DNA of 64,000 nucleotides from Anaerolineae bacterium (lineage in GTDB: Bacteria; Chloroflexota; Anaerolineae; SpSt-313), in contig DAOUGZ010000316.1 of the NCBI GenBank assembly GCA_034428955.1, forward strand, positions 285 through 64,284. The letters are read 5' to 3'. A program made the position numbers and the translations under genes. The notes under the pieces were generated by a model that had not been told where the DNA came from, did no database searches, and saw only the letters and a program-made list of their open reading frames with translations. Of the stretch, positions 11,651-62,773 are shown one piece after another (positions within the stretch are counted from its first letter, which is position 1; the number at the start of each line of letters is the position of its first letter).

Positions 11651-11739
11651 CTCGTTGCTTGCCTCCTGCTTCAGGTTGGGGAACGAATGCTGTAACGCCC
11701 TGGATTATCACACCGCTCTGCGACGGCGTCAAGCGGCTA

Positions 11740-17341: not shown

Positions 17342-17360
17342 GGGGGACGAACAGACCCGA

Positions 17361-20646: not shown

Positions 20647-20754
20647 GGTGTGTACCTCCTTCACCAACCGTCATCAATCATCAGTCGTCAGTCTCGTCTC
20701 ACGCTTCTCGGATCCTTTCACGGATCACGGATCAGGCTTGATGCAAGACACCGC

Positions 20755-21858: not shown

Positions 21859-22064
21859 ACCTTCCTCCTAAGGTGCAGCACCGCTGCTGCAGGCCCCACG
21901 GGCAAGCGCCGGCTCGATCTATGGTAGTGTACCACAATGTCATCGAGAAGCGCGACTCGTCAGATCTGACACACCGGTTTCGAGAGAGGGAGTCCCGCCC
22001 AATCACCTTCTTGCCAGGAAAGCCGGTACGTCGGCGGACTCGGCGTCACAGACCTGACGCAGGT
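21859..22064 (-). promoter_or_regulatory. 206-nt gcvT 5' leader; candidate glycine-responsive element (canonical glycine riboswitch motifs not clearly matched)
   Basis: Long non-coding leader between two minus-strand genes. Only a partial CUGGCAAGAAGGUGA resemblance to the CAGGCAAAAGGAC motif of glycine aptamers. Confidence 0.3.
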
Positions 22065-25623: not shown

Positions 25624-25700
25624 AAACCTCTCACCCTTATGCCTGTCACAGCCGGTCGTCGTGGGGCCCCTCGAACGGCCCGGCCCCAGTGGCGGTTATG

Positions 25701-26507
25701 TCAGGATGAACGAGCACAGCCGGCCGTGCCGGAGAAACCCAGGCGCTCCGAGAGCTGCGCGGCGGCCCAGCGCACGATGCCACCCAGCTCGGCAAAGCGC
25801 TCGGGCGTGATGCGGCCCGACGGCCCCGAGATGCTGATGGCGGCGACGAGCTGGTCGTCGGCGTTCCACACTGGGCTGGCGATACAGCGCACCCCCAGCT
25901 CGCGCTCCTCGTCGTCGATGGCATAACCCCGTTGGCGGATCTCGGCCAGCTCGCTCCGCATGCGCAGTGGGTTGGTGATCGTATTCACGGTGTAAGCCGG
26001 CATCCCTTCCTCGATGACCCGCTCCAGCTCCTCCTCGGGCCAATAGGCGATCATGGCCTTGCCCACGGCAGTGCAGTGCAGCGGCGCCCAGGCGCCAAGC
26101 TGGGTAAACATGCCGAACGCACGCTGGGCGGGCGCCTGCGCCTGGGCAATGTAGATGACGCGATTGCCACTTGGGATGACCAGGTTGGCCACCTCACCAG
26201 TGCGATGTGCCAGCGCCTCCAATGTACCCATGGCCTCGTCGCGCAGGTCGTACTGCGCCTTGGCAGCCTCGCCGACGTGCAACAGGTGCAGGCCAAGGCG
26301 ATACACCTTGCTCTGACGGTCCTGTCGCACGTACCCCCGCCGAATCATCGTGGCCAGGATGCGGTGAACAGTCGACGTGTGCAGGCCAACACGCTCACAA
26401 AGCTCGGTCAAGGCCAGACCGTTCTTTTCCTCAGCCAGTGTATCGAGAAGGAGCAATGCGCGCTCCACTGATTGAATTGACCCCCGCTCCACCTTACTTG
26501 ATGACAT
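25701..26507 (-). CDS. IclR family transcriptional regulator
   Basis: N-terminal wHTH (SVERALLLLDTLAE...LTELCERVGLHTSTVHRIL) plus an IclR effector domain. The start is trimmed to M28 of the tracked ORF. Confidence 0.85.
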   Translation of the reverse strand: MSSSKVERGSIQSVERALLLLDTLAEEKNGLALTELCERVGLHTSTVHRILATMIRRGYVRQDRQSKVYRLGLHLLHVGEAAKAQYDLRDEAMGTLEALAHRTGEVANLVIPSGNRVIYIAQAQAPAQRAFGMFTQLGAWAPLHCTAVGKAMIAYWPEEELERVIEEGMPAYTVNTITNPLRMRSELAEIRQRGYAIDDEERELGVRCIASPVWNADDQLVAAISISGPSGRITPERFAELGGIVRWAAAQLSERLGFSGTAGCARSS

Positions 26508-28163: not shown

Positions 28164-28188
28164 CGGTTCCGCTCCCCGTCTGAAACGG

Positions 28189-28236
28189 CTGTATGAGCGT
28201 GTCATGGCGGTTCACCGCCATGACACGCTCATACAG
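28189..28236 (+). terminator. Perfect 22-bp hairpin (CTGTATGAGCGTGTCATGGCGG ttc ...) between the SBP and permease genes; intra-operon attenuator/terminator-like, no T-run
   Basis: Seen directly in the sequence; typical position for an SBP-versus-permease expression differential. Confidence 0.5.
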
Positions 28237-28344
28237 CGCTGTGCACATATTGGCCATGCAAGGACTGTTGGCCGCATGCAGCACGGCCGTTTACATGGAG
28301 ACAATGATCCGCATATACAATACACGGGAAGGGATGTGACCGTT

Positions 28345-30112: not shown

Positions 30113-30210
30113 CCTGCGTCCTGCATATTGGCGGGCCGAGGCACGTATTTATCGCATGAAGCTTGTCCTTTTGACACTGACATAATGTCTCATCAAAGGA
30201 GAGGAAGCGT

Positions 30211-34269: not shown

Positions 34270-34342
34270 GAAACACACGGTTCGTCCGGGCTTATCCATC
34301 GGAATAAGCCCGGACGAACCGTCCTTTGAGAGGAGCAAACCC

Positions 34343-36013: not shown

Positions 36014-36061
36014 CCCAACGAGGGGGGTGTGGGGGGCGCTGCCCCCCACACCCCTCCTACC

Positions 36062-36874
36062 TTAGGCAGGCTGGAGGACCACGGCCTCGCCGTGCTCGCC
36101 AATCCAATAGCGCAGGCCGGGGTACTTGACGTCCATGTAGGCGGCAAAGAGCTGCGGGTCCTCCGAGTTGTTGGAAAACATCTCATAGTGCCCCGGCACG
36201 GTCAGGCGTGGGCGGAGGGCGCCGGCCAGGTCTACCGCCTCTTGATAGGTCATGTTGCCGATGCAGTTTCGGGCATAGCGCTCGGCATCGCGGCCGTTGA
36301 TGGGCAGGAAGGCCAGGTCAAAGCGCCAGCGCGAGAGCTTGGCCAGCAACCCCTCGTACCAGACCGTATCGCCGGTGTGCAGGATGGTCACGCCGCCGGC
36401 CTCGACCACATAGCAGAGGTAAGGGTAGCCCAGCTCAGGGTCGCGGTCCAGGAACTCGTGGGCCGCGGCGACGGCGGTGATGCGCACCCCATCCTCTTCG
36501 TGCGTCAGGCCGTCGTCCAGGGCCACAATCCGCCCCTCAGGCACGCCCAACTCGCGCACGTGCGCACTGGCCACACGCGAGCAGACAAAGCGCGCCTGCG
36601 GCGAGGCGGCAGCAATGCCCGGCACGGCCACGGGGTCGATGTGGTCGAGATGGTCGTGGCTGCCCAGGACCCAGTCGGCGTGGGTCACCTCCTCCGGCGC
36701 GACCAGGGGCGGGACGTTGCGCCCGGCGTGCGGCATGAGGAAGGGATCGAAGTAGAGAACCTTGCCGGCGACCTTGACGATGTAGCTGAGCTGCCCCAGC
36801 CACCAAAAGGCGACGGCGCCCTCGGCCAAATCAAGGCCGTTAACGTCAGCGATGAGTGCCTTGCCTGTCTTCAT
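36062..36874 (-). CDS. MBL-fold metallo-hydrolase (UlaG-like lactonase/hydrolase superfamily)
   Basis: HxHxDH motif (GSHDHLDHID) and downstream His/Asp ligands. Trimmed to M26. Confidence 0.75.
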   Translation of the reverse strand: MKTGKALIADVNGLDLAEGAVAFWWLGQLSYIVKVAGKVLYFDPFLMPHAGRNVPPLVAPEEVTHADWVLGSHDHLDHIDPVAVPGIAAASPQARFVCSRVASAHVRELGVPEGRIVALDDGLTHEEDGVRITAVAAAHEFLDRDPELGYPYLCYVVEAGGVTILHTGDTVWYEGLLAKLSRWRFDLAFLPINGRDAERYARNCIGNMTYQEAVDLAGALRPRLTVPGHYEMFSNNSEDPQLFAAYMDVKYPGLRYWIGEHGEAVVLQPA

Positions 36875-36906
36875 GCTCCCTCCAGTCTTGGTCCGGCTGC
36901 CGGCGC

Positions 36907-37731
36907 TCAGCGTCCGGCCAGGATCTCGGCCGCGCGCCGGAAACCGCACTCGGCGCTGGTGAACACGGGTACGCCAAACTCGGCAGGCGAGTCGGGGTAC
37001 GAAAAGGCGAACACAGCCATGGAAAGCTGGGCCAGGACGACGCAGCCAATCTCCTCGCGGCTGAGGCAGGCGCGGATTCCCTCAGCCAGGGCCCGGTTAT
37101 GGCCCTGCACGTCGCCCACGGCCAGCCGCTGCCACGCCTCTTCGACGGTCAGGCCGCTAAAGGTGACCTCGCAGCCCATCTCCGCCGCCGCCTCTTGCAG
37201 GAGCGCCTGGGTGCTGGCCACCGTGGGGCCGTGGGTGGCGACGACGAGCACGCGCCCGCCGTGGGCCACCGCCCGCTCCATCATCGGCCGGTCGATCTGC
37301 AGGACGGGCACGCCATAGGGCGAGAGGGCTTGCTCCACCTGGGCGTAAGCCCGGTTCATCGTCGAGCAGGTAATGAGCACCGCGTCGACCTGGGCCAACT
37401 CGACCAGGTCCTTGGCATAGCGCACAAAGGCATCGATATTAGGCTGGGGCGGGCAGGGCAGCCCCTGCTCATGCGCGGCCATAAAGTTGAGCTGCACCGC
37501 CTCGTTGCCCACGTTGACCAGGTGCACCCCAGGCAGGTACAGCCGCCCGAAATAGTTGGCCCAAAGGGTGATCCACGACGAGCCGTTCAGCAGGCCCAGC
37601 CGTTTGCCCCGTAGGGGCAGGGCGACCTCGCTCCCACATTCCACGGGTTCGGGCCCCAGGTGCGCCACGCCGGTCACCCGTAGATAGCTGGCGAAAAGAT
37701 CGAAAGGGTTGATATCGGCCAAGTCCGTCAC
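36907..37731 (-). CDS. Asp/Glu/hydantoin racemase superfamily protein (putative isomerase/racemase/decarboxylase)
   Basis: Two-Cys architecture (ITCSTM ... second domain) reminiscent of maleate isomerase/AMDase-like folds. Assignment is tentative. Confidence 0.5.
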   Translation of the reverse strand: MTDLADINPFDLFASYLRVTGVAHLGPEPVECGSEVALPLRGKRLGLLNGSSWITLWANYFGRLYLPGVHLVNVGNEAVQLNFMAAHEQGLPCPPQPNIDAFVRYAKDLVELAQVDAVLITCSTMNRAYAQVEQALSPYGVPVLQIDRPMMERAVAHGGRVLVVATHGPTVASTQALLQEAAAEMGCEVTFSGLTVEEAWQRLAVGDVQGHNRALAEGIRACLSREEIGCVVLAQLSMAVFAFSYPDSPAEFGVPVFTSAECGFRRAAEILAGR

Positions 37732-38672
37732 CGCAGTGCCTCCCGTGCCTCGATGGCCTCGCGCGCCGCGGCGGCAATGTCTTCAGGCCGCAGGCGATAC
37801 TCGGCCAGCAACTCGGCGACTCCGCCGCTCTCGATGAAGCGATCCTGCACGCCGATGCGCCGCAGCACGGCCGGCGCCCGCTCGCCGAGGACCTCGGCCA
37901 CGGCGCTGCCCAACCCACCGATGACCGAGGCGTTCTCTGCCGTGACCACGGCGCCCGTCTTGCGGGCCGACTCAGCGATCAGGTCCTCATCAATGGGCTT
38001 GACCGAGCCGTAGTGCAACACATCCGCCCAAATGCCGTCGCGGGCCAAAAGGTCCGCCGCCTGCAAGCAAAAGCCCGTCATCATGCCGGTGCCGATGAGG
38101 GTCACGTCGGCCCCCTCGCGCAGCCGGTGGCCCCGCCCCCAGGCGAACTGATGGCCCTCGCCGAAAAGATCGGGCAGGGTGTAGCGGGTGACGCGGAAAT
38201 AGACCGGCCCCTCGGTCAGCACCGCCGCGCGCATCATGGAGCGCAGTTCCCAGTTGTCCCCCGGATCGGCCACGCGCATGTGGGGCATACCACGCATAAT
38301 GGCCATATCGGTGACGGCATTGTGCGAAGCGCCGGCCCGGCTGGTGGGGATGCCCACATAAGAGCCGGGGATCTTGACGTTCAGCTTGGGGTAGGCGATG
38401 CTGATCGACACCTGGTCCAACGCTCGCTTGGCCGCGAACACGGCAAAGGTGCAGGGGAAGGGAATGTACCCCTGCGTGGCCAGCCCGGCGGCGATGCCGA
38501 ACATGTTCTGCTCGGCGATGCCGCATTGGATAAAGCGAGCCGGAAAGGCCTGCTTAAAGTATACGGCCTTGCTGGAGGTGTGCAAATCCGCGTCGAGCAC
38601 GATAATATTGGGGAACTCGTGCCCCAGCTCGAGCAGGGTTTTGCCGAACACGTCGCGCATTTCCTCGGGCAT
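37728..38672 (-). CDS. Transketolase, C-terminal (pyrimidine-binding plus C-terminal domain) subunit of a split transketolase
   Basis: FIQCGIAEQNMFGIAAGLA and GASHNAVTDMA motifs. ATG 38672 after GGAGAATGAGAGG. Confidence 0.9.
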   Translation of the reverse strand: MPEEMRDVFGKTLLELGHEFPNIIVLDADLHTSSKAVYFKQAFPARFIQCGIAEQNMFGIAAGLATQGYIPFPCTFAVFAAKRALDQVSISIAYPKLNVKIPGSYVGIPTSRAGASHNAVTDMAIMRGMPHMRVADPGDNWELRSMMRAAVLTEGPVYFRVTRYTLPDLFGEGHQFAWGRGHRLREGADVTLIGTGMMTGFCLQAADLLARDGIWADVLHYGSVKPIDEDLIAESARKTGAVVTAENASVIGGLGSAVAEVLGERAPAVLRRIGVQDRFIESGGVAELLAEYRLRPEDIAAAAREAIEAREALR

Positions 38673-38682
38673 GGTCAGCCTC

Positions 38683-39594
38683 TCATTCTCCACCGTAGAA
38701 CTTTTCCTTGGCCACCGGGTCGTCGAGCTTGCTGTAGCCTTCCGCCGGCCGGCCATAGTTGCGAGCCAGGCGGCGCAGCATGGCATCGGCATCCTCCGGG
38801 TCCGGCGCCTGGGTGTGCCACTTGTAGTTGAACTCGGTCTGGCTCAGGCCCTTGCCCTTGACGGTGTGGGCGATGATCGCCACGGGGGCGCCGTGGACAC
38901 GCACGTGACGCGCCGCGTGCAGCGTCTGCAGCAGGGCTTCGATGTCGTGCCCGTCAACCTCCAGCACCTCCCAGCCAAAGGCCCGCCACTTGTCGGCAAA
39001 GGGCTCCAGGGTCATCTCCTCCCAGATAAAGCCCTTGGCCATGACCTTGTTATAGTCCACGATGGCGATGAGGTTATCCAGGTGATAGTGGGCCGCCGAC
39101 ATGGCCGCCTCCCACACCTGGCCCTCGTCGCACTCGCCGTCGCCCAGCAGGCAGTAGACGCGGTTGTAGGGCATCTCGCGGAAGCGAAAGCCCAGGGCCA
39201 TGCCCACGCTGATGGAGAGCCCCTGGCCCAGCGGCCCGCCGGAAGACTCGAGCCCGGGCGTGCGGGTCATGTCGGTGTGCCCCTCCAGGCGCCCGCCCAG
39301 CTCGCAGTAGGTATAGACCTCCTCCAGCGGGAAAAAGCCGCGCAGGGCCAGGGCGGCATAGAGGGCCGGCGAGGCGTGAGCCTTGGAGAGGACAAAGCGG
39401 TCCCGCTCCTCCCAGCGGGGGTTCTGCGGGTCCACCTGCAACTCGCGGAAGTAGAGGCAGGCCAAAAGCTCGGCAATGGAAAAGGCGCCGCCGACATGCC
39501 CCCAGCGGCCGTAGGTGATCATCTCCAGGCTCAACCGGCGGATCCGGTAGGCGATTTCCTCCAGCCGGTCAATCTCTTGGGGTTTGAGGCGCAT
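38683..39594 (-). CDS. Transketolase, N-terminal (TPP-binding) subunit of a split transketolase
   Basis: GHVGGAFS, CLLGDGECDEGQVWEAA, and TPP-binding GDG...N motifs. Confidence 0.9.
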   Translation of the reverse strand: MRLKPQEIDRLEEIAYRIRRLSLEMITYGRWGHVGGAFSIAELLACLYFRELQVDPQNPRWEERDRFVLSKAHASPALYAALALRGFFPLEEVYTYCELGGRLEGHTDMTRTPGLESSGGPLGQGLSISVGMALGFRFREMPYNRVYCLLGDGECDEGQVWEAAMSAAHYHLDNLIAIVDYNKVMAKGFIWEEMTLEPFADKWRAFGWEVLEVDGHDIEALLQTLHAARHVRVHGAPVAIIAHTVKGKGLSQTEFNYKWHTQAPDPEDADAMLRRLARNYGRPAEGYSKLDDPVAKEKFYGGE

Positions 39595-39629
39595 AGAGGC
39601 AGTCTCCTTTCAAGGAAGCGCTACCCGCG

Positions 39630-40380
39630 TCAAGGGCGAGGCGCACACGCCGCGGCAAACTCGGCACCGATGACGGTGTATCCCACCGTCTCCTCGAACC
39701 AGGCGACCCAGCGGGCGGTATTCTCCAGATTCGCCACGCTCTCCGGCGTCTCCCCGGCGAGGGTGCCGTCGCGCAGCCAGATGACGGTATAGTTGCGATA
39801 GAGGGCGTCGAGGGCGGTGGCGGCCAGGCAGACGTTGGCCCACAGCCCGGCACAGACCAGATTGCGCACCCCCAGGTTGCGCAGGGCCGTGTCCAGCCGG
39901 GTGTCGAAAAAGCCGCTGTAGACGTGCTTGCGAATGTAGGGCTCGCCCTCGCGCGGCGCCAGGCGGGGGGATATCTTGAGCGGCCCGGCAGGCCCGCCGT
40001 GGTATTCACGCGAGTCCACGCCGCCCTCGGCGAATGTGCGGTTAAAGGTGTCGGGCACACCATCGAGGCTCCAGCTACGGGCGAAATGGGCGCCAAAGGC
40101 CGAGCGTTCGAGCGCGATGCGCGGCGCGCTGTTCATGGCATAGAGCACCGGCAGGCCCACGGCGCGGGCCGCGTCGAGGGCCAGGGCGATGCGCCCCTCC
40201 ATGCGCTGCAGGTGAGGCACGAGGGGGTCCGCCGGGTCGCCCCAGTCGCCGCGTTTTTGGTCGTTGTAGTAGACGTCTACGAGGAGCAACCCCGTCTCCG
40301 AACGCGACAGGAGCAGGTCCTCGTGCCGCTCCTCTCCCGAGTGGGTGTAGCGGCCGCATAATGCGAGGGCTTTGCTCATC
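39630..40380 (-). CDS. Isochorismatase-family cysteine hydrolase
   Basis: LLLVDVYYND, VYSGFFDTRLDTALRNLGVRNLVCAGLWANVCL. ATG overlaps the upstream stop (TGATG). The tracked ORF has a spurious 210-codon N-terminal extension. Confidence 0.8.
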
Positions 40381-41515
40381 ACGCCTCCATCTTGCCCCAG
40401 ACCCGGCGTACGGTTTCGAGGTAGTACATATAGTTGTCGAGCGGGACGTCCGGCGGCACGCGATGATCGCAAAAGCCGATGTAGCCGCCCTCCTCCACCA
40501 AAGGCGCCAGGCGATAGACCTCTTGCTCGATCTCGCGCTTGCCCTGGGCCAGGATGTGCTTGTCGAACCCGCCCAGCATGAGCAGGTCCCGGCCGTACTC
40601 CTGGCGGTAGCGAACCGGGTCCGCGCCCCAGGTGCCGACCTCGACCGGGAAGAGGCCGTTGATGCCCGCTTCGAGCCACAGAGGGATGAGGGCGTCGATC
40701 TGGCCGTCGCAATCGATCCAGATGACCTCGACGCCATGCTTGCGGACCAGGTCGCTGATGCGGCGATAGTGGGGCACGAGATACCGCTTGACGTGCTGAG
40801 GGCTCAGAAGCGGCCCGCTGCTGTAGCACATGTCTTCCCACAGGGCGCAGGCGTCGAACTGACCACCCGTCTCCAGCACCCGGCCAAAGACGCCGATGAT
40901 GCAGTCGGCGACGGTGGTCACCATCTCTTCGAACCAGGCCGGGTCGTCGTACACGACCATCGAGAGCTTCTCGACGCCCATCCAGTTGCGCAGCCAGCCA
41001 TAGAGGCTGGCACAATACCGCCCACAGGGCAGGGCGATGACCTCATTGCGCTCGGGGTCGGCCCACAATCGGGTGCGCTCTTCCCAGTCTGGGGGGTAGC
41101 GGTCGGGGTGTGCCGGGTCCAGGCGGGGTTTGTAGTGCTTGCGCCAACTGTCGCGGTCCACCAGTTGGTGGCCGATGGGCATGGGGATAGTGCTGCCCAG
41201 CTTGCTGCGCAGCACGCGCACGCCATCCCACTGCTGGACGAGTTCGCGCTCGCCGCAATCCTCCAGCACGACCTCTTCAAAGGCCGGCATGAGGCCCACC
41301 TCAACGCCCGTCGCAGCCATGACCGCATCCAGGCCATAGTCCATGCCAAAGAAGGCGTCGCTGTTGGTCTTGTCGATGTGCGGCGGCAGGCCCTGCCCAT
41401 GCCAAACGGAGAGGGTCTCGCGCCAAAAGCCGAAATCGCAGATGGGCGCGCGGTCGCGCGGTTGGTAGCGCATGGTGGCCAGAAAACGCTCTCGGTCGGT
41501 CATCGGCCCGATCAT
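40379..41515 (-). CDS. Uroporphyrinogen decarboxylase (URO-D)-like family protein, paralog 1
   Basis: URO-D/MtaA-like TIM-barrel signature across the full length; 4-nt overlap with GH2. Confidence 0.85.
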   Translation of the reverse strand: MIGPMTDRERFLATMRYQPRDRAPICDFGFWRETLSVWHGQGLPPHIDKTNSDAFFGMDYGLDAVMAATGVEVGLMPAFEEVVLEDCGERELVQQWDGVRVLRSKLGSTIPMPIGHQLVDRDSWRKHYKPRLDPAHPDRYPPDWEERTRLWADPERNEVIALPCGRYCASLYGWLRNWMGVEKLSMVVYDDPAWFEEMVTTVADCIIGVFGRVLETGGQFDACALWEDMCYSSGPLLSPQHVKRYLVPHYRRISDLVRKHGVEVIWIDCDGQIDALIPLWLEAGINGLFPVEVGTWGADPVRYRQEYGRDLLMLGGFDKHILAQGKREIEQEVYRLAPLVEEGGYIGFCDHRVPPDVPLDNYMYYLETVRRVWGKMEA

Positions 41516-45811: not shown

Positions 45812-45880
45812 CCTCCGCCTTCGGAGGTTTAGGGGGTAAACTGTCGCCGCCCGCGGGCGGCGACAGTTTACCCCCTAAAC
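45812..45880. repeat. Short hairpin (CCTCCG cctt CGGAGG) followed by a 54-bp perfect palindrome (27-bp arms, no loop) inside the operon between the Gfo/Idh/MocA and GH29 genes
   Basis: GTTTAGGGGGTAAACTGTCGCCGCCCG | CGGGCGGCGACAGTTTACCCCCTAAAC at 45827-45880, confirmed base by base. Confidence 0.7.
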
Positions 45881-45912
45881 CCCTATCCCAGCCTGGGCCG
45901 GGTAGCGCATAC

Positions 45913-48101: not shown

Positions 48102-49103
48102 TCATTCAGCGGAGAGTGCTGCTCTTCGCCAGGGGTCTGCTTGCCGGAATGCCTCCAGCATGATGCCCTTCCTCTCCAGGGCCACGCCAATCGCAGTCCC
48201 ATCGCCATAGTCGGAGAGGATAAAGCCCCCCGCAGGAACGGCCCACTGCTGCAGCAAGAGCCGGGCTTCCTCGCGTATCTCGTCGTCGCCTGCGAACGGC
48301 AGCGTATGCTGAATGTCGCAGAGGGACTCGAAGCAGATGCGCCCCCGAAACCGCCGGCCCATCTCCTCGATGCCGAGCACGCGGGGCTGCTGCAGGTTGA
48401 TGACGTCCAGGCCGATTTCGATGAGGCTATCCAGGATGGCATCGACCTTGCCGCAGGAGTGCATCCACACATGCCAGCCCTGCCGGTGGATCGCGTCAAA
48501 GATGCGCTTGTAGCGTGGCTTGAAGAACTCGTCCCAGAGGGCCGGGCTGACGAAAAGCGCCTGCTCGCTGCCCCAATCATCCGTGAACGAGAAACCGTGG
48601 ATGCGGCGCCCAAACCGGCGCCCGATGTTCTCGATAATGCCCAGGTCGAACTCGACAATACGGTCGGCGAGCGCCTCGGCGGCCTCCCGCTCCAGACGCA
48701 GATCGACAAGCGTGTTCTCAAAGCCGCGCAGAGCATGCATGCGCTCAAAGAGCAGCATAAAAATGCCCGTCAGCACATACTGGCCGTCCGAGCCGGCAAA
48801 GCGCTCTTCCATGCCCCGGTAGAACGCCGGCGAGTCGGCATCGGGCCAGCGGAAATGGGCCATGTCTTGCCGGTCGGCCAGCGGATGGCCTTTCACCTGC
48901 CCCATGTTGCCCATCTCGGAGCGCACCCACAGGCAGCCCCATTCATCGACCGTGCGCCGCAAGCGCTTGTCGCCCGTGCCTGTCTGGTTCCAGGCCACGG
49001 TGTGGGTATCGCTCAGCCCCAGCGCCTCAAAGCGCAGAGGCAACCTATCCGGCACGCCGAACTCGATAGCGCGGCGCACAACCTCCAGGCCAGACATCGC
49101 CAT
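48102..49103 (-). CDS. URO-D-like family protein, paralog 2
   Basis: URO-D-like fold (...FSFTDDWGSEQALFVSP..., HSCGKV...). Confidence 0.85.
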   Translation of the reverse strand: MAMSGLEVVRRAIEFGVPDRLPLRFEALGLSDTHTVAWNQTGTGDKRLRRTVDEWGCLWVRSEMGNMGQVKGHPLADRQDMAHFRWPDADSPAFYRGMEERFAGSDGQYVLTGIFMLLFERMHALRGFENTLVDLRLEREAAEALADRIVEFDLGIIENIGRRFGRRIHGFSFTDDWGSEQALFVSPALWDEFFKPRYKRIFDAIHRQGWHVWMHSCGKVDAILDSLIEIGLDVINLQQPRVLGIEEMGRRFRGRICFESLCDIQHTLPFAGDDEIREEARLLLQQWAVPAGGFILSDYGDGTAIGVALERKGIMLEAFRQADPWRRAALSAE

Positions 49104-49114: not shown

Positions 49115-50269
49115 CTACTTTTCAACGGAGTGAAATGCCTCATAGACCCGCCACAGGGGCTCGACGCGCGCCGGCAGCGGCAGATGGGCCGGGAGCGGCC
49201 GGGCGCTTTGGTGGAGCGCCGCGTCGATCAGGGCGACGGCGTTCTCCGGCGGGACGTCCGGCAGGATGGCCTTGGCGGGGCTAAAGACGTAGCCGCCGCC
49301 GCGCCCCAGGTAGCGCAGGCAGGCCTCGGCCTCGCAGCGCACCTCCTCGGCAGTCCCGCGCGGCAGCGTATGCTGCGAGCTGACGCCGCCGTTCAGGCAA
49401 AGCGCGTGGCCGTAGCGACGCTTGATCTCCAGCATATCCATCGCTTCCGGCTGCAGCGGGTTGAGGATCTGGACGCCGATATCGATCAGGTCGGGCACGA
49501 TCTCGGTGACATCCCCGCAGGTGTGGACCATGACCACCATGCCTTTAGCCCGCACCCGCTCAAAAATGCGCCCGGCCCTGGGCTTGATGAGCTTGCGCCA
49601 GCGCTCCGGCCCCATGAGCAGGCCGCGCTGGGCACCCCAGTCGTCACCAAAGCGAAACCCGTCAAAGGGGTAGCCGGCGATGCGCTCGACAAGGCGCAGG
49701 TGCAGCTCCGTCAGAGCCTCCAACAGCTCCTCGGCAAAGACGGGATGCAGGACCATATCGGTCAGGAAGGCTTCCATCCCGCGCAAGGCCCAGCAGCGGT
49801 CAAAGAGGCCGTGCGCGTCGCCACACAGAACAAAGCGGTCCCCGTGTTCCGCCAGGAACTCGCCGGCGCCGTGGAAGTAGCTCTCCTCACACAGGTCGGG
49901 GAACTCGTACCCCCGCAACGAGGGCTCTTTTAGCGGGGAATCCTCCAGGTGCGGCGCATGGCCTGCCCGCCAGGTGCAGCCAAAGGCATCCACATAGCGG
50001 TCCGGGCCAAGCGGGCGCCGCGCCGCCTCGATGTGGAAGAAGGGCAGGTGGTTGACGATGCGCCCGGCCAGGTCGCGCCCCTCGGGGAGTTGAGTGAGCT
50101 TGTCCAGAGCGGCATCGTCGATGCGGATATCGTAGGGGACAATGTCCGACTCCTGCCCGGCCAGCGCCCTCAGCACACGCTCCTTGGGCGTCAGCCGCGC
50201 CGGCAGCCCATCCCGCTTGCCGCCCAACCGCTCGCCTCTGTTGCAGGGGATAGGTCTTTCTTCGCTCAC
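49115..50269 (-). CDS. URO-D-like family protein, paralog 3
   Basis: URO-D-like fold (FRFGDDWGAQRGLLMGP, HTCGDV). GTG start overlaps the permease stop (GTGA). The tracked ORF has a spurious 170-codon extension that runs antisense through the permease gene. Confidence 0.8.
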   Translation of the reverse strand: MSEERPIPCNRGERLGGKRDGLPARLTPKERVLRALAGQESDIVPYDIRIDDAALDKLTQLPEGRDLAGRIVNHLPFFHIEAARRPLGPDRYVDAFGCTWRAGHAPHLEDSPLKEPSLRGYEFPDLCEESYFHGAGEFLAEHGDRFVLCGDAHGLFDRCWALRGMEAFLTDMVLHPVFAEELLEALTELHLRLVERIAGYPFDGFRFGDDWGAQRGLLMGPERWRKLIKPRAGRIFERVRAKGMVVMVHTCGDVTEIVPDLIDIGVQILNPLQPEAMDMLEIKRRYGHALCLNGGVSSQHTLPRGTAEEVRCEAEACLRYLGRGGGYVFSPAKAILPDVPPENAVALIDAALHQSARPLPAHLPLPARVEPLWRVYEAFHSVEK

Positions 50270-51144
50270 CCCTTCAACGCCCCTGCCGTCATGCCCTTGA
50301 TCACATAGCGCTGCAGGAAGGCAAAAGCCAGCACCACCGGCACAATCGTAATGGCCATGCCGGCGGCCACGCCGGGCTCGTTGGAGGTAAAGTGGCCCTC
50401 CAACAGGCTGATGCCCACCGGCAGCGTGCGCGATTCCGTCGTGCCCGTCAGGACCAGGGCCAGGATGTACTCGCTCCAGGCGGAGAGAAAGTGAAAAGTG
50501 GCCATCGTCGCCAGGGCGGGCTGGGAGAGGGGCACAATGATGCGCCAGAAGACACTCCACATCCCCGCTCCGTCCATGATGGCCGCTTCCTCCAGCTCTT
50601 TCGGGATCGTCTCCATAAAGGCGCGCAGGAAAAAGACATTCCACGGGATGCCGACCGCGGCGTAGACAAGGGCCAGGCCGCCCAGGTTGTTGTAGAGGCC
50701 GATGCGACGGGTAAAGATGGCCAGGGGCACCAGGAGGATGGAGTGAGGGATCAAAAAGCCAAACAGGATATAGCCCCAAACCAACCCCTTGAGCCGGAAC
50801 TCGAAGCGCGCCAGGGCAAAGGCCGCCGTCGCGGCCAGGAGCAGCACCAAGATGAGGGAGCCGATAGTCAGCACGACGCTATTCAGGAAGTAGAGGCCCA
50901 TCTTGGCATGCACCCAGGCTTCCTGATAGTTGGACCACTTCCAGTGCGCCGGCAGGCCAAAGGGGTCGGCGTACAGCTCACGCGTGTACTTGAGGGAGGT
51001 GAGCAGTACCCAAACCAGCGGATACACACAGACGAGGGCCCACGCGATCAGCCCTGCGTGCAGCGCACCCTGCACAAGGCGGTGAATCCAGCGGTCGCGT
51101 CGTTGCTGCCTGGCGATATCGGCCTGGGAGCTGATTGCTGTCAT
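50266..51144 (-). CDS. ABC sugar transporter permease (MalG-like)
   Basis: EAA motif KELEEAAIMDGAGMWSVFWRIIVP. Start trimmed to the ATG just downstream of the preceding permease stop. Confidence 0.85.
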   Translation of the reverse strand: MTAISSQADIARQQRRDRWIHRLVQGALHAGLIAWALVCVYPLVWVLLTSLKYTRELYADPFGLPAHWKWSNYQEAWVHAKMGLYFLNSVVLTIGSLILVLLLAATAAFALARFEFRLKGLVWGYILFGFLIPHSILLVPLAIFTRRIGLYNNLGGLALVYAAVGIPWNVFFLRAFMETIPKELEEAAIMDGAGMWSVFWRIIVPLSQPALATMATFHFLSAWSEYILALVLTGTTESRTLPVGISLLEGHFTSNEPGVAAGMAITIVPVVLAFAFLQRYVIKGMTAGALKG

Positions 51145-52081: not shown

Positions 52082-52192
52082 CACCCCCCGTTCCGCCGGC
52101 CATGACCCTGGGTAGGGGTTTGGCGGGTTGGTTGGCCTGGCCGCCCTGCGGGCGGCCAGGCCAACCAACCCGCCAAACCCTCAGATCAACAA

Positions 52193-56055: not shown

Positions 56056-56123
56056 CACTCTTGCCAGGTAGCACGAAGCACGGTAGAATAGGCCATCCGC
56101 TACACGCATAAAGAGGTGTTGGC

Positions 56124-56645
56124 ATGAGGCAGTTGCAGGGGACGGACATCAAGCGGTTGATGCGTAGCTACCGCCGCGAGCACCCACCCCGGCACAGCAT
56201 CGTCGCCCTCTGCCAAAGCGTCGAGTACCCGGTAAATGTCGGTTCGATCTTTCGCCTGGCCGACGCGCTGGCCCTCGACGAGTTGGTGCTGACGGGTATC
56301 ACACCCACGCCGCCCAACGCCACCCTCCACAAAGTGGCTCGCGGCAAGGAGGCTCGGGTTCCCTGGCGCTACGTCCCCACCCCAGGCGATGCCATCCCCG
56401 AACTCAGAGCTGAGGGCTATCGGATCATCGCTGTCGAAATCACCGACACGGCGACCCCGTACATGACCTACGACTATCCCGAGCGTGTGTGCCTCGTCGT
56501 CGGCCACGAGGATCATGGCGTCACCAACCAGACCCTGGCCCTCTGCGATTCCGCCGTCTACATCCCCATGTTCGGCAAAGGGCGGTCGCTCAACGTGCAC
56601 GTTTCGCTCTCTATCGTCTGCGCTCACCTGCGCTTTGGTTGCTGA
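56124..56645 (+). CDS. SpoU/TrmH-family RNA 2'-O-methyltransferase
   Basis: SPOUT motifs: VEYPVNVGSIFR, LVVGHEDHGV, IPMFGKGRSLNVHVSLSIV. Confidence 0.85.
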   Translation: MRQLQGTDIKRLMRSYRREHPPRHSIVALCQSVEYPVNVGSIFRLADALALDELVLTGITPTPPNATLHKVARGKEARVPWRYVPTPGDAIPELRAEGYRIIAVEITDTATPYMTYDYPERVCLVVGHEDHGVTNQTLALCDSAVYIPMFGKGRSLNVHVSLSIVCAHLRFGC

Positions 56646-56660: not shown

Positions 56661-57287
56661 ATGGCACTCATCAAATTCGTCCGCAACTATCACGACCTGA
56701 GCACCGACAACGGCTTCCAGTTCGAGTTCTTTTGTGACCGCTGTGGCTCGGGCTATCAGACTCCATTCCAGGCCTCGGCTACGGGCCTGATCAGCGGCGC
56801 CCTGCAGACCGCCTCCAGCCTCTTTGGCGCCCTCAGCGGCGCTGCGGAGGTGGGCGAGCGAGTGCGCTCTTCCACCTGGGAAAAGGCCCACGACGCGGCC
56901 TTTGCCAAGGCTATCGAAGAGGCCAAGCCGCACTTTAGGCAATGTCGCCGCTGCGGCCAGTGGGTCGACGATGCCTGCTGGAACAACGAACGCGGCCTGT
57001 GCCTCGACTGCGCACCGGACCTGGAGGTCGAAGCATCCGCCGCCCAGGCCGAGGCCGCCGTAGAGAACATCCGGGAGGCGGCCCGCGAGGTCAAATACGT
57101 CAGCAAGAAAAAGTTCGAAGGTACCGTCGTGGCCACCTGCCCCAAGTGCGGTGCCCCCGCCGCCGGCGGCAAGTTCTGCGCCGAGTGCGGCGCGCCGCTG
57201 GCCAAGGAAAAGCACTGCACCGAGTGCGGCGCCAAGATCAAAGCCGGGGCCAAGTTCTGCCCAGAGTGCGGGACGAAGCAGGGGTAG
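56661..57287 (+). CDS. Multi-zinc-ribbon protein (two N-terminal CxxC pairs plus C-terminal triple CPxCG ribbons)
   Basis: CDRCGS, CRRCGQW...CLDCAP, CPKCGAP...CAECGAP...CTECGAK...CPECGTK. Confidence 0.7.
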   Translation: MALIKFVRNYHDLSTDNGFQFEFFCDRCGSGYQTPFQASATGLISGALQTASSLFGALSGAAEVGERVRSSTWEKAHDAAFAKAIEEAKPHFRQCRRCGQWVDDACWNNERGLCLDCAPDLEVEASAAQAEAAVENIREAAREVKYVSKKKFEGTVVATCPKCGAPAAGGKFCAECGAPLAKEKHCTECGAKIKAGAKFCPECGTKQG

Positions 57288-57289
57288 CG

Positions 57290-57415
57290 TCAAACGTCAT
57301 CGCTCAAGCGTCGTTCTACTGCGTGACACGTACTGCGTAACCTCGCCTTGTGCAGCGCCCGCCGCTCCAGGCGAGTTTACGCATTACGCAGCAGCATGGC
57401 GTTTGACGATAGGAG
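57290..57415. repeat. Palindromic repeat element, copy A (terminal inverted CGTCAAACG/CGTTTGACG; internal CTGCGTAA...TTACGCAG arms)
   Basis: Shares CGTCAAACGT, CTACTGCGT, GCGTAACCTCG and TTACGCATTACG blocks with copy B. Confidence 0.55.
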
Positions 57416-57421
57416 TTGTGA

Positions 57422-58357
57422 ATGCAGTTGCAGATCGGCGAGCTGGTGCACTATGCGCTGTTCTTTGCGCGGGCACGGCTGCTGGGCGCGCGTCGGCCGC
57501 TCGTTGGCGGCATCAACATCACCTCCCACTGCAATCTCGGCTGCGCGCATTGCGTGTACGCGGCGCAGGCGGCACCCCGCGAACACCTGACTCGCGGCCA
57601 GATCGAGGGGTTGATGGCCGGCTTCCGACGGCAAGGGGTACACGTGCTCTTTTTGCAGGGCGGCGAGCCGACCCTCTGGCACGACGGCGACTATTGCTTC
57701 AACGACCTGGTCCGTGATGCGCGCCGCCGGTTCTCGCGGGTAGGCTGCGTGACCAACGGCATCCTGCCCATCGATAACCCCTGCGACCTGGTCTGGATCA
57801 GCGTGGACGGCTCGCCGGAGGTGCACGATCGCGTGCGCGGGGCGGGGAGCTTTGAGCGGATGGCCGCCAATATCGCCGCCAGCGCCAACCCAAACCTGTA
57901 TGCCAACATCACCCTCTCCCGGCTGAACGTCGACGATCTGGAAGCGTGCATCGAGCACATCCGCCGCGATATGCCGCGCATCAAGGCCGTCTCGATCAAC
58001 TTTCAGATTCCCTATCCGGGCGTCGAGGCGCACACGCTGAGCTATGCGCAGCGCGCCGAGGCCGTCGAGCGAGTCATCGCCCTCATCCGCCGGGGCTACC
58101 CGATCCTGAACTCGCCCGCCGCGCTCCGGCTGATGCTCAAGCCGGGGTGGAATACGACCCACTGGCTGATCAGCCTGGCCCATCCCAACGGCACGGTCGT
58201 GGAGGGGTGCGGCGCGCGTCACATCGACCCCAAGATCTGCGAAAACTGCGGCTATGGGGTCATGGCCGAGGTCCAGGCCATCTGGCGTGCGCACCCTGGG
58301 GTGATTATGAATGCGTTCAGGCTGTTTGGGGTGGTGGGGCGGAGACGTCAAACGTGA
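57422..58357 (+). CDS. Radical SAM protein (CxxxCxxC) with C-terminal extra Cys pair (twitch/partial SPASM-like)
   Basis: GINITSHCNLGCAHCVY cluster motif, a GGEP-like LQGGEPTLW SAM-binding motif and C-terminal CENCGYG. AGGAG RBS. Confidence 0.8.
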   Translation: MQLQIGELVHYALFFARARLLGARRPLVGGINITSHCNLGCAHCVYAAQAAPREHLTRGQIEGLMAGFRRQGVHVLFLQGGEPTLWHDGDYCFNDLVRDARRRFSRVGCVTNGILPIDNPCDLVWISVDGSPEVHDRVRGAGSFERMAANIAASANPNLYANITLSRLNVDDLEACIEHIRRDMPRIKAVSINFQIPYPGVEAHTLSYAQRAEAVERVIALIRRGYPILNSPAALRLMLKPGWNTTHWLISLAHPNGTVVEGCGARHIDPKICENCGYGVMAEVQAIWRAHPGVIMNAFRLFGVVGRRRQT

Positions 58358-58359
58358 AG

Positions 58360-58445
58360 CGTCATTCTACTGCGTAATGCGTAACCTCGTGCTGCACCTG
58401 CCGCTTCACCTTACGCATTACGTATTACGTAGTAGAATGACTCCT
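58360..58445. repeat. Palindromic repeat element, copy B (near-perfect roughly 25-bp arms GTCATTCTACTGCGTAATGCGTAA / TTACGCATTACGTATTACGTAGTAGAATGAC)
   Basis: Seen directly in the sequence; lies between the radical SAM and UbiA genes. Confidence 0.55.
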
Positions 58446-58464
58446 GCCTCTAGAAAGAACCGCC

Positions 58465-59454
58465 ATGCCCACGTACGCAGAGATCCATGAGGCCTATCGC
58501 CGGCGCCTGGCCAAGTCCCGGCCCAACTCGCCACGGGCCTATTACGAGATTATGGTGCCGCGCTTTATCATGGTCTCCGCGTCGCTGCCCTTCGCGGTGG
58601 GGGCGGCCCTTGCGGCTTATCGCACCAGCGCCTTCAACTGGCCGGTCTTTGGGCTCAGTTCGCTGGTCGTCTTTCTGATCATGGCCGCGGTCAACGCCGG
58701 CAACACGTATTTTGATTATGAGACGGACCGCCAGAACCGGAACTTTAGCGCCTACTCGGGCGGCATCCGCATCCTGGTAGAGGGCAAAATCACCAACCGG
58801 CAGCATGCCCTCCTCTTTGCCGGCGGCCTCCTGGCCCTGGCCTGCCCATTGGGGCTGGCGCTCTACTTCCTGCTGCACACGGGGCCGTGGACCCTGGCTT
58901 TGGGCTTTTTCGGCGCTCTCTGCGGCTGGTTCTACACGGCTCCGCCGCTGAAGCTGGTCTATCGGGGCCTGGGCGAGTTGGTCATCGCCGTCTGCTCGGG
59001 CATGCTCACTGTCGTCACCGGCTACTATCTGCAGGCCGCCCGCTTCGACCTGGCCCTCCTGCCGCCGGCCGTGGGGCTGGCCGCCTCGATCCTCAACGTC
59101 ATCCTCATCAACGAATTCGCGGACCGGCCGTCGGATGCCCGTTCGGGCAAGGTAACGGCGCTGGTGCGGCTGGGGCCCGAGCGCGCGGCCCGGCTGTACC
59201 AGGCCAACCAAATAGTCACGCTGCTTGCGCTCGCGGCGGCGCCCCCCTTCGGCCTGCCCTGGTATGCCGCCTGGGGTGCGCTGGTCGCGGCGCTGCCCCT
59301 CGCCTGGCGCAACCGGCGGGCGATGCGCGCCGCTGCCTGGGCCGGCGATGGGATCAACGATCTCACCCTGCAGACCACCACCGTGCACCTCCTGCTGGAG
59401 GGAGGGTTGCTGGTGGGGCTGTTGGCGGGTGTGGTAATGCGATTGTTGGCATAG
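58465..59454 (+). CDS. UbiA-family aromatic prenyltransferase (MenA-like)
   Basis: Eight or nine TM helices and Asp-rich motifs (NAGNTYFDYETD, NEFADRPSD). Confidence 0.8.
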   Translation: MPTYAEIHEAYRRRLAKSRPNSPRAYYEIMVPRFIMVSASLPFAVGAALAAYRTSAFNWPVFGLSSLVVFLIMAAVNAGNTYFDYETDRQNRNFSAYSGGIRILVEGKITNRQHALLFAGGLLALACPLGLALYFLLHTGPWTLALGFFGALCGWFYTAPPLKLVYRGLGELVIAVCSGMLTVVTGYYLQAARFDLALLPPAVGLAASILNVILINEFADRPSDARSGKVTALVRLGPERAARLYQANQIVTLLALAAAPPFGLPWYAAWGALVAALPLAWRNRRAMRAAAWAGDGINDLTLQTTTVHLLLEGGLLVGLLAGVVMRLLA

Positions 59455-59566
59455 GATTCGAAAGAACCAGGAATCAGGGAACCGAGAGCCCAGGCAGCGA
59501 GCCGCGCTCGCCCTGGGCAGCCGATTCCTCCGGTTCCTTTCCCGTTCGCTGATCGGAGACAGCATT

Positions 59567-61315
59567 ATGGAGACCATCCCTCATGCGGAACACCCCCGGC
59601 CGGACCTGCAGCGAGAGGTCTGGTGTACGCTCAATGGGCAGTGGGAGTTTGCGCCCGACCCCGAGGACCGGGGCCTGGCAGAGGAATGGTGGCAGCGCCC
59701 CGGCCTGCCCGGCCGCATCACGGTGCCCTACCCCATTGGGTCCGAGCTGAGCGGCGTTGAGGCCATCAATGCCCCCCACACTGTTTACTGGTACATGCGC
59801 CGCTTCGATCTGCCCCGCGAAATGCACGACCACATCGTCTACCTTCACTTTGGCGCTGCCGACTATCACGCACGGGCCTGGCTGAACGGCACCCTGCTGG
59901 GGGACCACGTCGGCGGCTATACGCCCTTTTCCTTTGATGTGAGTGAGACCGTGCAGCCACACGACAACCGTCTGGTGGTGCGCGTGGCAGACAGCCGCAG
60001 CCTCCGGCAGGTGCGAGGCAAACAGACGTGGCGCGCCGAGCCTTTTGCGATTTTCTATCCGGGCACGAGCGGCCTCTGGCAGAGTGTGTGGCTGGAGAGA
60101 TCGGGGCCGAGCCGGCTGACCGGCGTGCGCCTCTACCCGGACCTGAAAGCGGGCTGCTTCCACCTGCGCGCGGCCATCGAGCGGCCCGAGCCTGCCGCCT
60201 ACCTCGACGTTCGCGTCACCGGCCCCGACGGCCTACCCCAACCCCTGGCGCGCCTGGATGTCTCCGCCGGGCGCGCCGACGGTGTCATCCCCATCCGCGA
60301 CCCGCAGGCCTGGTCGCCCGAGGCGCCGCACCTCTACGAGCTGGAACTCGTCCTGCAGACGGCCTACGCGCAAGAGCTGGACCGCGTCCGCACCTACGGC
60401 GGCCTGCGGGAGATTGCCGTCGATGGCGGGCAGATATTACTGAACGGCAAGCCCCTCTACCAGCGGCTGCTCCTGGACCAGGGCTACTATCTCGGCGGAG
60501 GCTACACGCCGGCCGGCGACGGCGACTGGCGCCGCGATGTAGAGCTGGTCAAGGCCATGGGCTTCAATGGGCTGCGTATGCACCAAAAGCTGGAGGCGCC
60601 GCGCTTCCTCTACTGGTGCGACCGGCTGGGGGTGCTGGTGTGGTCGGAGCTGCCCTCGGCCTACTGGCCCGGGCGCGAGAGCCGGCGGCAGGTGGCCGAA
60701 CTCTTGCCGGCGATGATCGAACGCGACGGCAACCACCCATCGATCATCACCTGGGTGCTCTTTAACGAGAGCTGGGGCATCCATGACCTGAACTGGTCCG
60801 CCAAGGCGCGCGACGAGGTCGTGCAGCTCGTGTATCAGGCGCACAACTTGGACCCCTCGCGCCTGATCATCGACAACAGCGGCTTTGACCACCTCGAGAC
60901 CGACGTCATGGATATCCATCACTACCTGAGCGGGCTCGACGAGGCGGAGCGAATCTACGACCGGCTCGTGGCCGGCGAACTCTGGCGCCACGCCCTGCTA
61001 CCCGGCCTGCGCTACATGCTACAGCCGCAGCGGGCCTACAAGCCGCCTCTGGGCCCGCGCGTCCGCTATCAGGGCCAGCCGCTCTTTGTCAGCGAATACG
61101 GGGGCTTTGGCCACTATGAGAGCAGCGTGCCCGGAGGGCTCCTGGAGCAATACCAGGCAGCCACCCTGGCCATCGCCCGGCGGCCCGCCTTCCAGGGGTT
61201 CTGCTACACCCAGATGTACGACACCTACCAAGAGCGGAACGGCCTGCTGACCTTTGAGCGCGAGCCCAAAGTGCCCCTTGAGGCGCTGCGCGCCTTCAAC
61301 GAGAGCTTGCCCTAG
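59567..61315 (+). CDS. Glycoside hydrolase family 2 (582 aa, beta-galactosidase/glucuronidase-like core)
   Basis: WLNGTLLGDHVGGYTPFSFDV, NGLRMHQK, HPSIITWVLFNESWG. Confidence 0.85.
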   Translation: METIPHAEHPRPDLQREVWCTLNGQWEFAPDPEDRGLAEEWWQRPGLPGRITVPYPIGSELSGVEAINAPHTVYWYMRRFDLPREMHDHIVYLHFGAADYHARAWLNGTLLGDHVGGYTPFSFDVSETVQPHDNRLVVRVADSRSLRQVRGKQTWRAEPFAIFYPGTSGLWQSVWLERSGPSRLTGVRLYPDLKAGCFHLRAAIERPEPAAYLDVRVTGPDGLPQPLARLDVSAGRADGVIPIRDPQAWSPEAPHLYELELVLQTAYAQELDRVRTYGGLREIAVDGGQILLNGKPLYQRLLLDQGYYLGGGYTPAGDGDWRRDVELVKAMGFNGLRMHQKLEAPRFLYWCDRLGVLVWSELPSAYWPGRESRRQVAELLPAMIERDGNHPSIITWVLFNESWGIHDLNWSAKARDEVVQLVYQAHNLDPSRLIIDNSGFDHLETDVMDIHHYLSGLDEAERIYDRLVAGELWRHALLPGLRYMLQPQRAYKPPLGPRVRYQGQPLFVSEYGGFGHYESSVPGGLLEQYQAATLAIARRPAFQGFCYTQMYDTYQERNGLLTFEREPKVPLEALRAFNESLP

Positions 61316-61350: not shown

Positions 61351-61379
61351 TTGACAGCCCGCAGACATGGCAGTATAAT
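61351..61379 (+). promoter_or_regulatory. Sigma70 promoter TTGACA, 17-nt spacer, TATAAT for the pheST leader
   Basis: TTGACA at 61351-61356 and TATAAT at 61374-61379. Confidence 0.6.
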
Positions 61380-62753: not shown

Positions 62754-62773
62754 AAACGTCACGCGTGACGTTT
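62754..62773. other. Perfect 20-bp palindrome AAACGTCACGCGTGACGTTT in the pheS-pheT intercistronic spacer
   Basis: Seen directly in the sequence. It shares the ACGTCA/TGACGT core with the repeats at 57290 and 58360. Confidence 0.5.

Follow-up and report, generated by a model that had tools for sequence, protein, structure and literature searches.

Palindromic repeats with heptamer-built arms in the intercistronic spacers of a radical SAM–UbiA locus from an uncultivated Anaerolineae bacterium

The locus described here lies in a 64,000-nucleotide stretch of an Anaerolineae bacterium (contig DAOUGZ010000316.1, assembly GCA_034428955.1), referred to below as the window. Five genes follow one another on the forward strand and encode a SpoU-family RNA methyltransferase, a double zinc ribbon protein (ZnR), a radical S-adenosylmethionine protein (rSAM), a UbiA-family prenyltransferase, and a glycoside hydrolase of family 2 (GH2, Table 1). 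The 134-nt spacer between ZnR and rSAM and the 107-nt spacer between rSAM and UbiA each harbor a palindromic repeat, here called copy A and copy B, and a third palindrome of a different make lies in the 112-nt spacer between UbiA and GH2 (59455–59566). The reading favored here, with a probability of roughly 0.6, is that A and B represent diverged copies of one small palindromic intergenic repeat that is particular to a lineage of the Anaerolineae, which resembles repetitive extragenic palindromes (REPs), miniature inverted-repeat transposable elements (MITEs), and Rickettsia palindromic elements (RPEs) and which lies in the intercistronic spacers of a probable single transcript. The two repeats that flank rSAM are related and fold very stably, their arms are built from heptamers, and related loci vary in whether the corresponding spacers contain them.

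Copy A is an imperfect palindrome of 121 nt that begins at the very next base after the TAG stop codon of ZnR. It is closed by a 9-bp outer stem formed by CGTCAAACG (57288–57296) and CGTTTGACG (57400–57408). Copy B is 96 nt long and carries the left outer repeat without the right one; its stem of 24 bp pairs 58361–58384 with 58418–58441 at 92% complementarity. Both elements have nested stems of at least 24 bp. Four blocks are common to the two copies, namely CGTCAAACGT, AAGCGTC[G/A]TTCTACTGCGT, TGCGTAACCTCG, and TTACGCATTACG. When copy A is compared with the window by BLASTN, copy B is found at about 70% identity over 83 to 99 nt, in inverted (E 2e-8) as well as in direct orientation (E 1e-5), and besides B no match falls below E 0.2. 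All four half-arms of A and B can be aligned with one another. The folding energies are −65.8 kcal/mol for A and −43.6 kcal/mol for B (z about −4.6), which none of 200 shuffled sequences equaled. The block TTACGCATTACG, with up to two mismatches allowed, occurs at five sites in A and B and at one site elsewhere, compared with 1.8 expected. When the window is compared with an independent Logan assembly of the same organism (L001), 4 of 2720 positions differ. As these all lie outside A and B, the repeats are not an assembly artifact. The first-pass annotation, made from the letters of the window, had described two related palindromes on either side of rSAM that share four blocks and each fold into a long hairpin, and all of this is borne out. 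It had placed the start of copy B at 58360, however, which is 14 nt too far downstream; the element extends into the 3′ end of rSAM and includes its final codons and stop.

Each arm is made up of a few degenerate heptamers in a row, of the types TACTGCG, TAATGCG, and TTACGTA. The left arm of A reads TACTGCG TGACACG TACTGCG TAACCTCG, the left arm of B reads TACTGCG TAATGCG TAACCTCG, and the right arm of B consists of TTACGCA TTACGTA TTACGTA. Within the arms, identity at a lag of seven nucleotides is 0.6 to 0.7, compared with about 0.1 to 0.2 at lags of 5, 6, 8, and 9. The doublet CGTAANNCGTAA is present at five sites in A and B, whereas 0.67 would be expected for the whole window. The opposing arms of one element can differ by one heptad (two versus three), which is what slippage would yield.

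Table 1. Positions of the genes, repeats, and signals of the locus in the window.
Feature	Position	Strand	Basis or detail
Promoter-like site TTGCCA-17-TAGAAT	56061-56089	+	consensus scan
SpoU-family RNA methyltransferase gene	56124-56645	+	Pfam survey
Zinc-ribbon (ZnR, double zinc ribbon) gene	56661-57287	+	Pfam; TAG stop 57285-57287
Copy A, imperfect palindrome, ZnR-rSAM spacer	57288-57408	.	BLASTN, arm alignment, folding
Radical SAM (rSAM) gene	57422-58357	+	311 aa
Copy B, rSAM-UbiA spacer	58346-58441	.	BLASTN, arm alignment, folding
Period-7 tandem array, TTACGTA x3, right arm of B	58411-58431	+	Tandem Repeats Finder
UbiA-family prenyltransferase gene	58465-59454	+	329 aa; PF01040
Third palindrome, heptad family GGAACYG/CGGTTCC, UbiA-GH2 spacer	59464-59548	.	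-47.8 kcal/mol, z -3.5
Glycoside hydrolase family 2 (GH2) gene, 3' of third palindrome	59567-61315	+	Pfam
Perfect 20-nt palindrome AAACGTCACGCGTGACGTTT, pheS-pheT spacer	62754-62773	.

The left end of copy B, CGTCAAACGTGA, supplies the final five codons of rSAM (RRRQT) and its stop codon. The rSAM proteins of all relatives stop four residues sooner, with a TAG at exactly the point at which the element begins in the window. Copy B replaced the ancestral stop codon of the gene and added RRRQT and a new stop. A TAG stands on both flanks of copy A (57285–57287 and 57410–57412), and no matching pair surrounds copy B. The search for target-site duplications that the first-pass annotation had recommended gave no clear one at the borders of either copy.

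Nine rSAM contexts, including that of a homolog of 36% identity, were compared. In L009 both spacers are bare (17 and 57 nt), and the same is true of the rSAM-UbiA spacer in L011 (15 nt) and in L003 and L007 (28 nt each). Quite different palindromes occur between rSAM and UbiA in L005 and L008 and between SpoU and rSAM in L011. Elements of the A/B type are missing from the equivalent spacers of L009, L011, L003, L007, and L002. With spacers that are either bare or occupied by unrelated palindromes in the relatives, A and B do not belong to the conserved features of the locus. The ZnR gene is found between SpoU and rSAM only in the lineage of the window, while SpoU is directly followed by rSAM in L005, L009, and L011; ZnR and copy A may have been acquired jointly. 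The contig L008 (Logan SRR31933951) was considered as an independent carrier of copy A. Its positions 1–424 are identical to 57261–57684 of the window and comprise copy A and the first approximately 90 codons of rSAM, and its remaining sequence is about 80% identical to the window. On account of these identical 424 nt followed by divergence it was not counted as independent evidence for copy A. Either the assembly joined two sequences into a chimera, or two co-occurring strains recombined.

The heptads extend beyond the two copies. A profile built from the four arms (nhmmer) finds only A and B in the window. Outside it, matches lie in contigs of high GC content, namely L134, L155, L159, and L146, the last with two loci separated by 3.8 kb. 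In L005, a 12.9-kb contig from a relative of 78% identity, three further spacers contain hairpins made of CGTAAnn heptads, which stand beside unrelated genes; the doublet CGTAANNCGTAA is found there at 10 sites in three separate spacers, compared with 0.09 expected. The contig L134 (JANTGY010000010.1, from an Anaerolineae metagenome-assembled genome, MAG) carries hairpins of the CGTAATG family in frame within two adjacent ATP-binding cassette (ABC) exporter genes. Judged by length and sequence, these hairpins (3072–3155 and 1077–1136) are probably insertions into the same loop of the ATPase domain, to which they add about 15 to 28 residues, and the peptides that they encode are alike (ASSxMR ... 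RITD). L134 has a third heptad palindrome in a spacer (2270–2317). Related contigs therefore carry the same heptad motif in spacers that are not linked to one another, and some carry it within coding sequence.

The third palindrome of the window, which is absent from the features listed by the first-pass annotation, is built from another heptad family. Counterparts of the GGAACYG family occupy the same UbiA-GH2 spacer in L005 and L008. In L005, two spacers contain GGAACTG hairpins, and the second copy of the family in this contig lies at 12275–12380. Pattern scans were also run over larger collections. In the GTDB-representative genomes, among which the source genome is not included, TTCTACTGCGTN{2,9}TGCGTAACC gave three matches, none of them from the source genome, and in metagenome contigs TTACGCAKTACGN{0,9}YAGTAGAA gave 30 single matches.

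The five genes from SpoU to GH2 are probably expressed as one transcript that contains three intercistronic hairpins, with SpoU as the probable first gene of the unit. This is indicated by the promoter-like site 5′ of SpoU, which is the sole one that a consensus scan finds between 56056 and 61350, and by the terminator scan, which detects no terminator-like site at A or B. A T-run is absent 3′ of both stems. As selfish or neutral DNA the elements would spread and turn over by transposition or by slippage combined with template switching. When transcribed, their long stems without a U-tract would block 3′ exonucleases or be cut by RNase III, and the hairpins would shift the relative stability of the flanking cistrons instead of ending transcription. 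By analogy with the REP hairpins of malEFG (see below), A and B would protect the mRNA that lies 5′ of them against 3′ exonucleases or offer RNase III sites. That the elements are neutral or selfish is no less likely than that they are adaptive, as the elements are dispensable in the relatives and as G·U pairs are not in excess in the stems.

Several observations weigh against the favored reading. On the sense strand the stems contain 19 G·U against 12 A·C oppositions, which is no excess, and there is consequently no sign of selection at the RNA level. Neither a target-site duplication nor a parent insertion sequence (IS) nor a transposase of the type of REP-associated tyrosine transposases (RAYTs) was found among the open reading frames (ORFs) of the window. 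The consensus promoter scan is the single basis for co-transcription. The matches of the metagenome scan are mostly chance occurrences in low-GC contigs, and the protein between the two repeats fits no curated family and has generic nearest structures. The copy count, which covers the window, amounts to two in 64 kb, and the two lie 1 kb apart, which leaves room for a local duplication. The last point leads to the most serious rival, in which the hairpins are local and non-mobile, the heptamer arrays having grown in place by slippage and template switching and having been shared by duplication or gene conversion. Besides the small number and the proximity of the copies, this origin would explain the unequal, slippage-like number of heptads in opposing arms, the abundance in the window of further long, perfect palindromes whose sequences are unique, and the finding of neither a transposase nor a clear target-site duplication. 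What speaks against it are the TGCGTAA/TACTGCG heptads at unlinked sites, that is, in three spacers of L005, in two of L146, and at three sites in L134, of which two are situated inside ORFs. Independent local origin is not an easy explanation for such unlinked sites, and we regard it as unlikely, though well worth weighing.

The remaining rivals assign the hairpins a dedicated role. A cis-regulatory RNA or operator (an attenuator, a riboswitch, or a protein-binding site) for rSAM and UbiA would account for very stable structures directly upstream of both genes, for blocks common to A and B that could bind one shared factor, and for the AGGAG at which copy A ends, 6 nt 5′ of the rSAM start codon. 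The comparison of related loci has already largely refuted it, as five relatives lack the elements and two have unrelated palindromes instead, and L005 places the same motif beside unrelated genes. Rfam 15 gives no match at the gathering score in the whole window, and at E ≤ 1 between 56000 and 63000 the T-box leader before pheS is its sole match, with none at A or B. A dedicated regulator is thus quite improbable. Rho-independent terminators that divide the locus into three transcription units would fit strong stem-loops right after stop codons. Such terminators would be followed by a T-run, however, and by promoters for the downstream units, and no promoter-like site is found downstream before 61351; with stems of at least 24 bp and 80 to 120 nt overall, the structures are also far longer than is typical. 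This division is very improbable, and intrinsic termination itself is rejected on the terminator scan and the missing U-tract.

The proposal that rSAM is a mobile cassette, either as a composite between two MITEs or as an integron-type cassette whose palindromes are attC-like, draws on the related palindromes in the same orientation on both sides of the gene and on the upstream ZnR gene, which is extra relative to other loci. It is hardly credible: relatives without the repeats keep rSAM in synteny with SpoU and UbiA, the bracket would part rSAM from its co-evolving partner UbiA, copy B has no right outer repeat, and the Pfam survey of the window ORFs finds no transposase, integrase, or Y1/RAYT protein. 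The core pair RYYYAAC...GTTRRRY has zero matches in a regular-expression scan of the region and of the whole window, and the attC/integron version is rejected on this ground. The first-pass annotation had seen a bracketed cassette or a pair of hairpins that insulates a unit of rSAM and UbiA. This is not supported, as the repeats surround rSAM alone and so split the conserved rSAM-UbiA pair, an unrelated heptad palindrome follows UbiA, and the spacers of the relatives are bare or different; its comparison of the repeats to REPs and MITEs, by contrast, is supported. A and B therefore do not define a cassette, and the conserved functional unit is the pair of rSAM and UbiA.

The rSAM protein carries the CxxxCxxC motif at C37, C41, and C44 and a conserved C-terminal cysteine triad (C263, C273, and C276). 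Its family is narrow, with about 35 clusters at 58 to 100% identity, followed by a fall to 36%, and originates from Chloroflexota/Anaerolineae MAGs. The best NCBIfam match is TIGR03961 (PTO1314) with 73.2 bits against a cut-off of 306. The first-pass annotation had suggested that the subfamily be sought among HpnH, MqnE/MqnC, and PqqE. None of these is reached: the NCBIfam scores for all named equivalogs (MqnE/MqnC, PqqE, MoaA, and others) are far below their cut-offs, and MqnE/MqnC do not appear among the top 25 NCBIfam matches. PF13186 (SPASM/twitch) gives no match, the cysteine triad being present nonetheless, and PF11946/DUF3463 gives none at E ≤ 10. A distant relation to PTO1314 and HpnH does emerge through the wider family, which an exhaustive search recovered as proteins of about 300 aa with 29 to 41% identity whose best model is PTO1314/TIGR03961 (66–142 bits). 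Relatives at 37% identity carry PF11946 and score about 55 bits with TIGR03470 (HpnH) against a cut-off of 225. The AlphaFold model of rSAM (pLDDT 88) has as its nearest PDB folds SkfB, CteB, and anSME (SPASM/twitch) as well as viperin, with template modeling (TM) scores of about 0.6, and structure was given up as a route to function because these neighbors are generic.

As had been noted before, the gene after copy B does encode a UbiA-family protein, which scores 105.7 bits with PF01040 (cut-off 34.2) and has two Asp-rich motifs. MenA models and human UBIAD1 match it best. N77, D84, D220, D224, and K229 are invariant among nine partners. With 83.2 bits for the MenA model TIGR00751 (cut-off 102.15) and 102.7 bits for the best other model (cut-off 264), the protein is MenA/UBIAD1-like while staying under all equivalog cut-offs. 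A sequence search of the PDB returns SkfB (E 3e-7) for rSAM and human UBIAD1 (E 1e-13) for UbiA and no others. Compared with MenA/UBIAD1 and with PTO1314/DUF3463 (HpnH-type) enzymes, all scores of the window proteins are far below the curated cut-offs, and no hopanoid, men, or mqn genes lie nearby. A search of the literature on PTO1314, TIGR03961, DUF3463, and rSAM together with UbiA in Chloroflexi/Anaerolineae found nothing relevant.

The co-occurrence of the two genes, which the first-pass annotation had proposed to check, is confirmed: in all nine contexts, of which the most distant has 36% identity, rSAM and UbiA are neighbors, and their surroundings differ in at least four ways. In the 36%-identical homolog (L165) the gene order is reversed with an overlap of 4 nt. 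The identities of the partners fall in parallel, from 76 to 27% for UbiA and from 85 to 36% for rSAM. The pair of L165 is flanked by FixC-like and FixX-like genes (quinone-binding and 4Fe-4S domains of the electron-transfer flavoprotein–quinone oxidoreductase, ETF-QO) and by a polyprenyl synthase gene; in L168 an rSAM relative of 37% identity lies 3.6 kb from UbiA and a polyprenyl synthase, and a third relative has no UbiA nearby. Going by adjacency, parallel divergence, and the polyprenyl synthase and FixCX-like neighbors, rSAM and UbiA probably form a conserved module of an isoprenoid or quinone type. Most likely UbiA would join a polyprenyl chain to a head group, and rSAM, related to PTO1314/DUF3463 and equipped with an auxiliary cysteine triad, would then use radical chemistry to alter either of the two. 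It is possible that the pair constitutes a new pathway of two enzymes that yields a modified polyprenyl quinone or lipid, with an rSAM distantly of the HpnH/DUF3463 type. A role in prenylated quinones or lipids had been suggested from the start; it is plausible and gains context from the neighbors in the distant versions, and it is unproven.

The first-pass annotation had also connected A and B with a palindrome in the pheS-pheT spacer. The perfect 20-mer is present at the place it gave, and its kinship to the outer stem of A and B is suggestive. It matches an interior-deleted copy A at 14 of 15 positions, which is the best non-self match (E 0.35). The 9-nt terminal motif SAAACGTSA occurs in A, in B, and twice at pheS-pheT, that is, four times compared with 0.94 expected, a number that 1 of 100 shuffles reaches. 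In L005, the stop codon of SpoU is followed by a small hairpin of similar type (AAACG...CGTTT). Sequence resemblance of this kind would fit, without proving it, an origin of copy A in which a heptad element became nested within a small hairpin that was already there.

The window contains other long hairpins. Those at 28188–28237 and 52116–52180 are perfect (24 and 31 bp, loops of 2–3 nt), and each lies between the gene for a solute-binding protein and the first permease gene of an ABC operon. At the equivalent position of Escherichia coli malEFG, between malE and malF, REP hairpins stabilize the malE mRNA. More long spacer palindromes of unique sequence, with arms of 16 to 29 bp, are found at 45826–45881, 34277–34322, 10831–10872, 17353–17385, and 11723–11792. 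The first three are perfect or nearly so and the last two imperfect; those at 45826–45881 and 10831–10872 are free of a loop, and the one at 10831 is the only one that is followed by a T-run.

Outside the locus, a T-box leader (RF00230, 61388–61672, forward strand) covers the full length of the model with 66.6 bits, below the gathering score of 93 (E 3e-13). It is located directly 3′ of a perfect match to a sigma-70-type promoter (61351–61379) and 5′ of pheS, and the real start of pheS is accordingly later than the ORF start at 61575. Three paralogous genes of the uroporphyrinogen decarboxylase (URO-D) family lie on the reverse strand (40379–41515, 48102–49103, and 49115–50779), near GH2 and ABC sugar-transport genes. 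Large ORFs of 429 to 980 aa without a Pfam match at E ≤ 1e-5 are found at 18985–21927, 30128–32785, 24484–25926, 36029–37318, and 38398–39792, and those at 18985–21927 and 24484–25926 have none at E ≤ 1e-3 either.

With the repeat described here, an uncultivated lineage of the Chloroflexota joins the bacteria that are known to have small palindromic repeats. The repeat has an unusual build from heptamer arrays, its insertion into reading frames is apparently tolerated, and it bears on the question of how small palindromic repeats originate. For annotation it is of value to know that such elements lengthen or shorten ORFs and can mimic regulatory RNAs. The pair of rSAM and UbiA is the more practical lead, being conserved, co-diverging, and in no curated family; as it also recurs with polyprenyl synthase and ETF-QO-like genes, it offers a tractable starting point in the Anaerolineae for what may be a new modification of lipoquinones or isoprenoids. 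The repeat is a new member of the broad class of small palindromic intergenic repeats, and neither it nor the gene pair is a major surprise. Heptamer-armed elements may colonize intercistronic spacers and, like RPEs, surface loops of proteins in frame, and they may spread without a recognizable transposase. That they constitute a previously undescribed selfish palindromic class of the Anaerolineae, and that rSAM and UbiA make up a two-enzyme lipid or quinone route, are two possible readings that are put forward tentatively.

The known repeats that are built from heptamers include the short tandemly repeated repetitive (STRR) sequences of cyanobacteria, which are heptamer tandem repeats in direct arrays. 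Two or more intergenic 7-nt units in tandem, as in STRR and TAACTGA repeats, likewise occur within the arms of A and B. MITEs are similar in their size range, in the terminal inverted repeats seen in copy A, in being non-coding, and in their variable presence at equivalent sites. They differ from A and B in that no clear target-site duplication and no parent IS accompany the latter and copy B has one terminus. The REPs tagged with GTAG or CGTC are described as having a stem of 5–13 bp, a loop of 2–20 nt, a total length of 20–40 nt, and an unpaired terminal tetranucleotide GTAG or CGTC, as occurring tens to thousands of times per genome, and as being associated with RAYTs of the IS200/IS605 type (Di Nocera et al. 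2013, PMC3733652). A and B share with REPs and bacterial interspersed mosaic elements (BIMEs) that they are short palindromes mostly just 3′ of coding regions, often within operons and sometimes within genes, that they are transcribed into hairpins, and that they vary between strains and species (PMC3733652). Copy A starts with GTAG-CGTC, and copy B carries CGTC at its left end. With 95–120 nt, nested stems, and heptamer arms they exceed the size of REPs, however, their CGTC is paired within the outer stem whereas the REP tag is unpaired, and the window contains no RAYT gene among its surveyed ORFs. The 64-kb window has two copies, which are too few for a tag to be called.

RPEs are palindromes of about 100 nt that are able to sit in reading frames (PMC3733652), which is paralleled by copy B, with its five codons and stop for rSAM, and by the in-frame hairpins in the ABC-transporter genes of L134. 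RPEs are unrelated in phylum and sequence, and a heptad substructure has not been reported for them. The TAACTGA repeats of Beggiatoaceae resemble the elements in their 7-nt units, which are repeated two to six times in intergenic positions and near start codons (MacGregor 2015, PMC4679880). These heptamers are likewise lineage-restricted, with an unknown function and slippage as their proposed origin (PMC4679880). Their units stand in direct orientation, and no folding is predicted for them (PMC4679880), whereas the degenerate units of A and B are arranged in inverted pairs that form hairpins.

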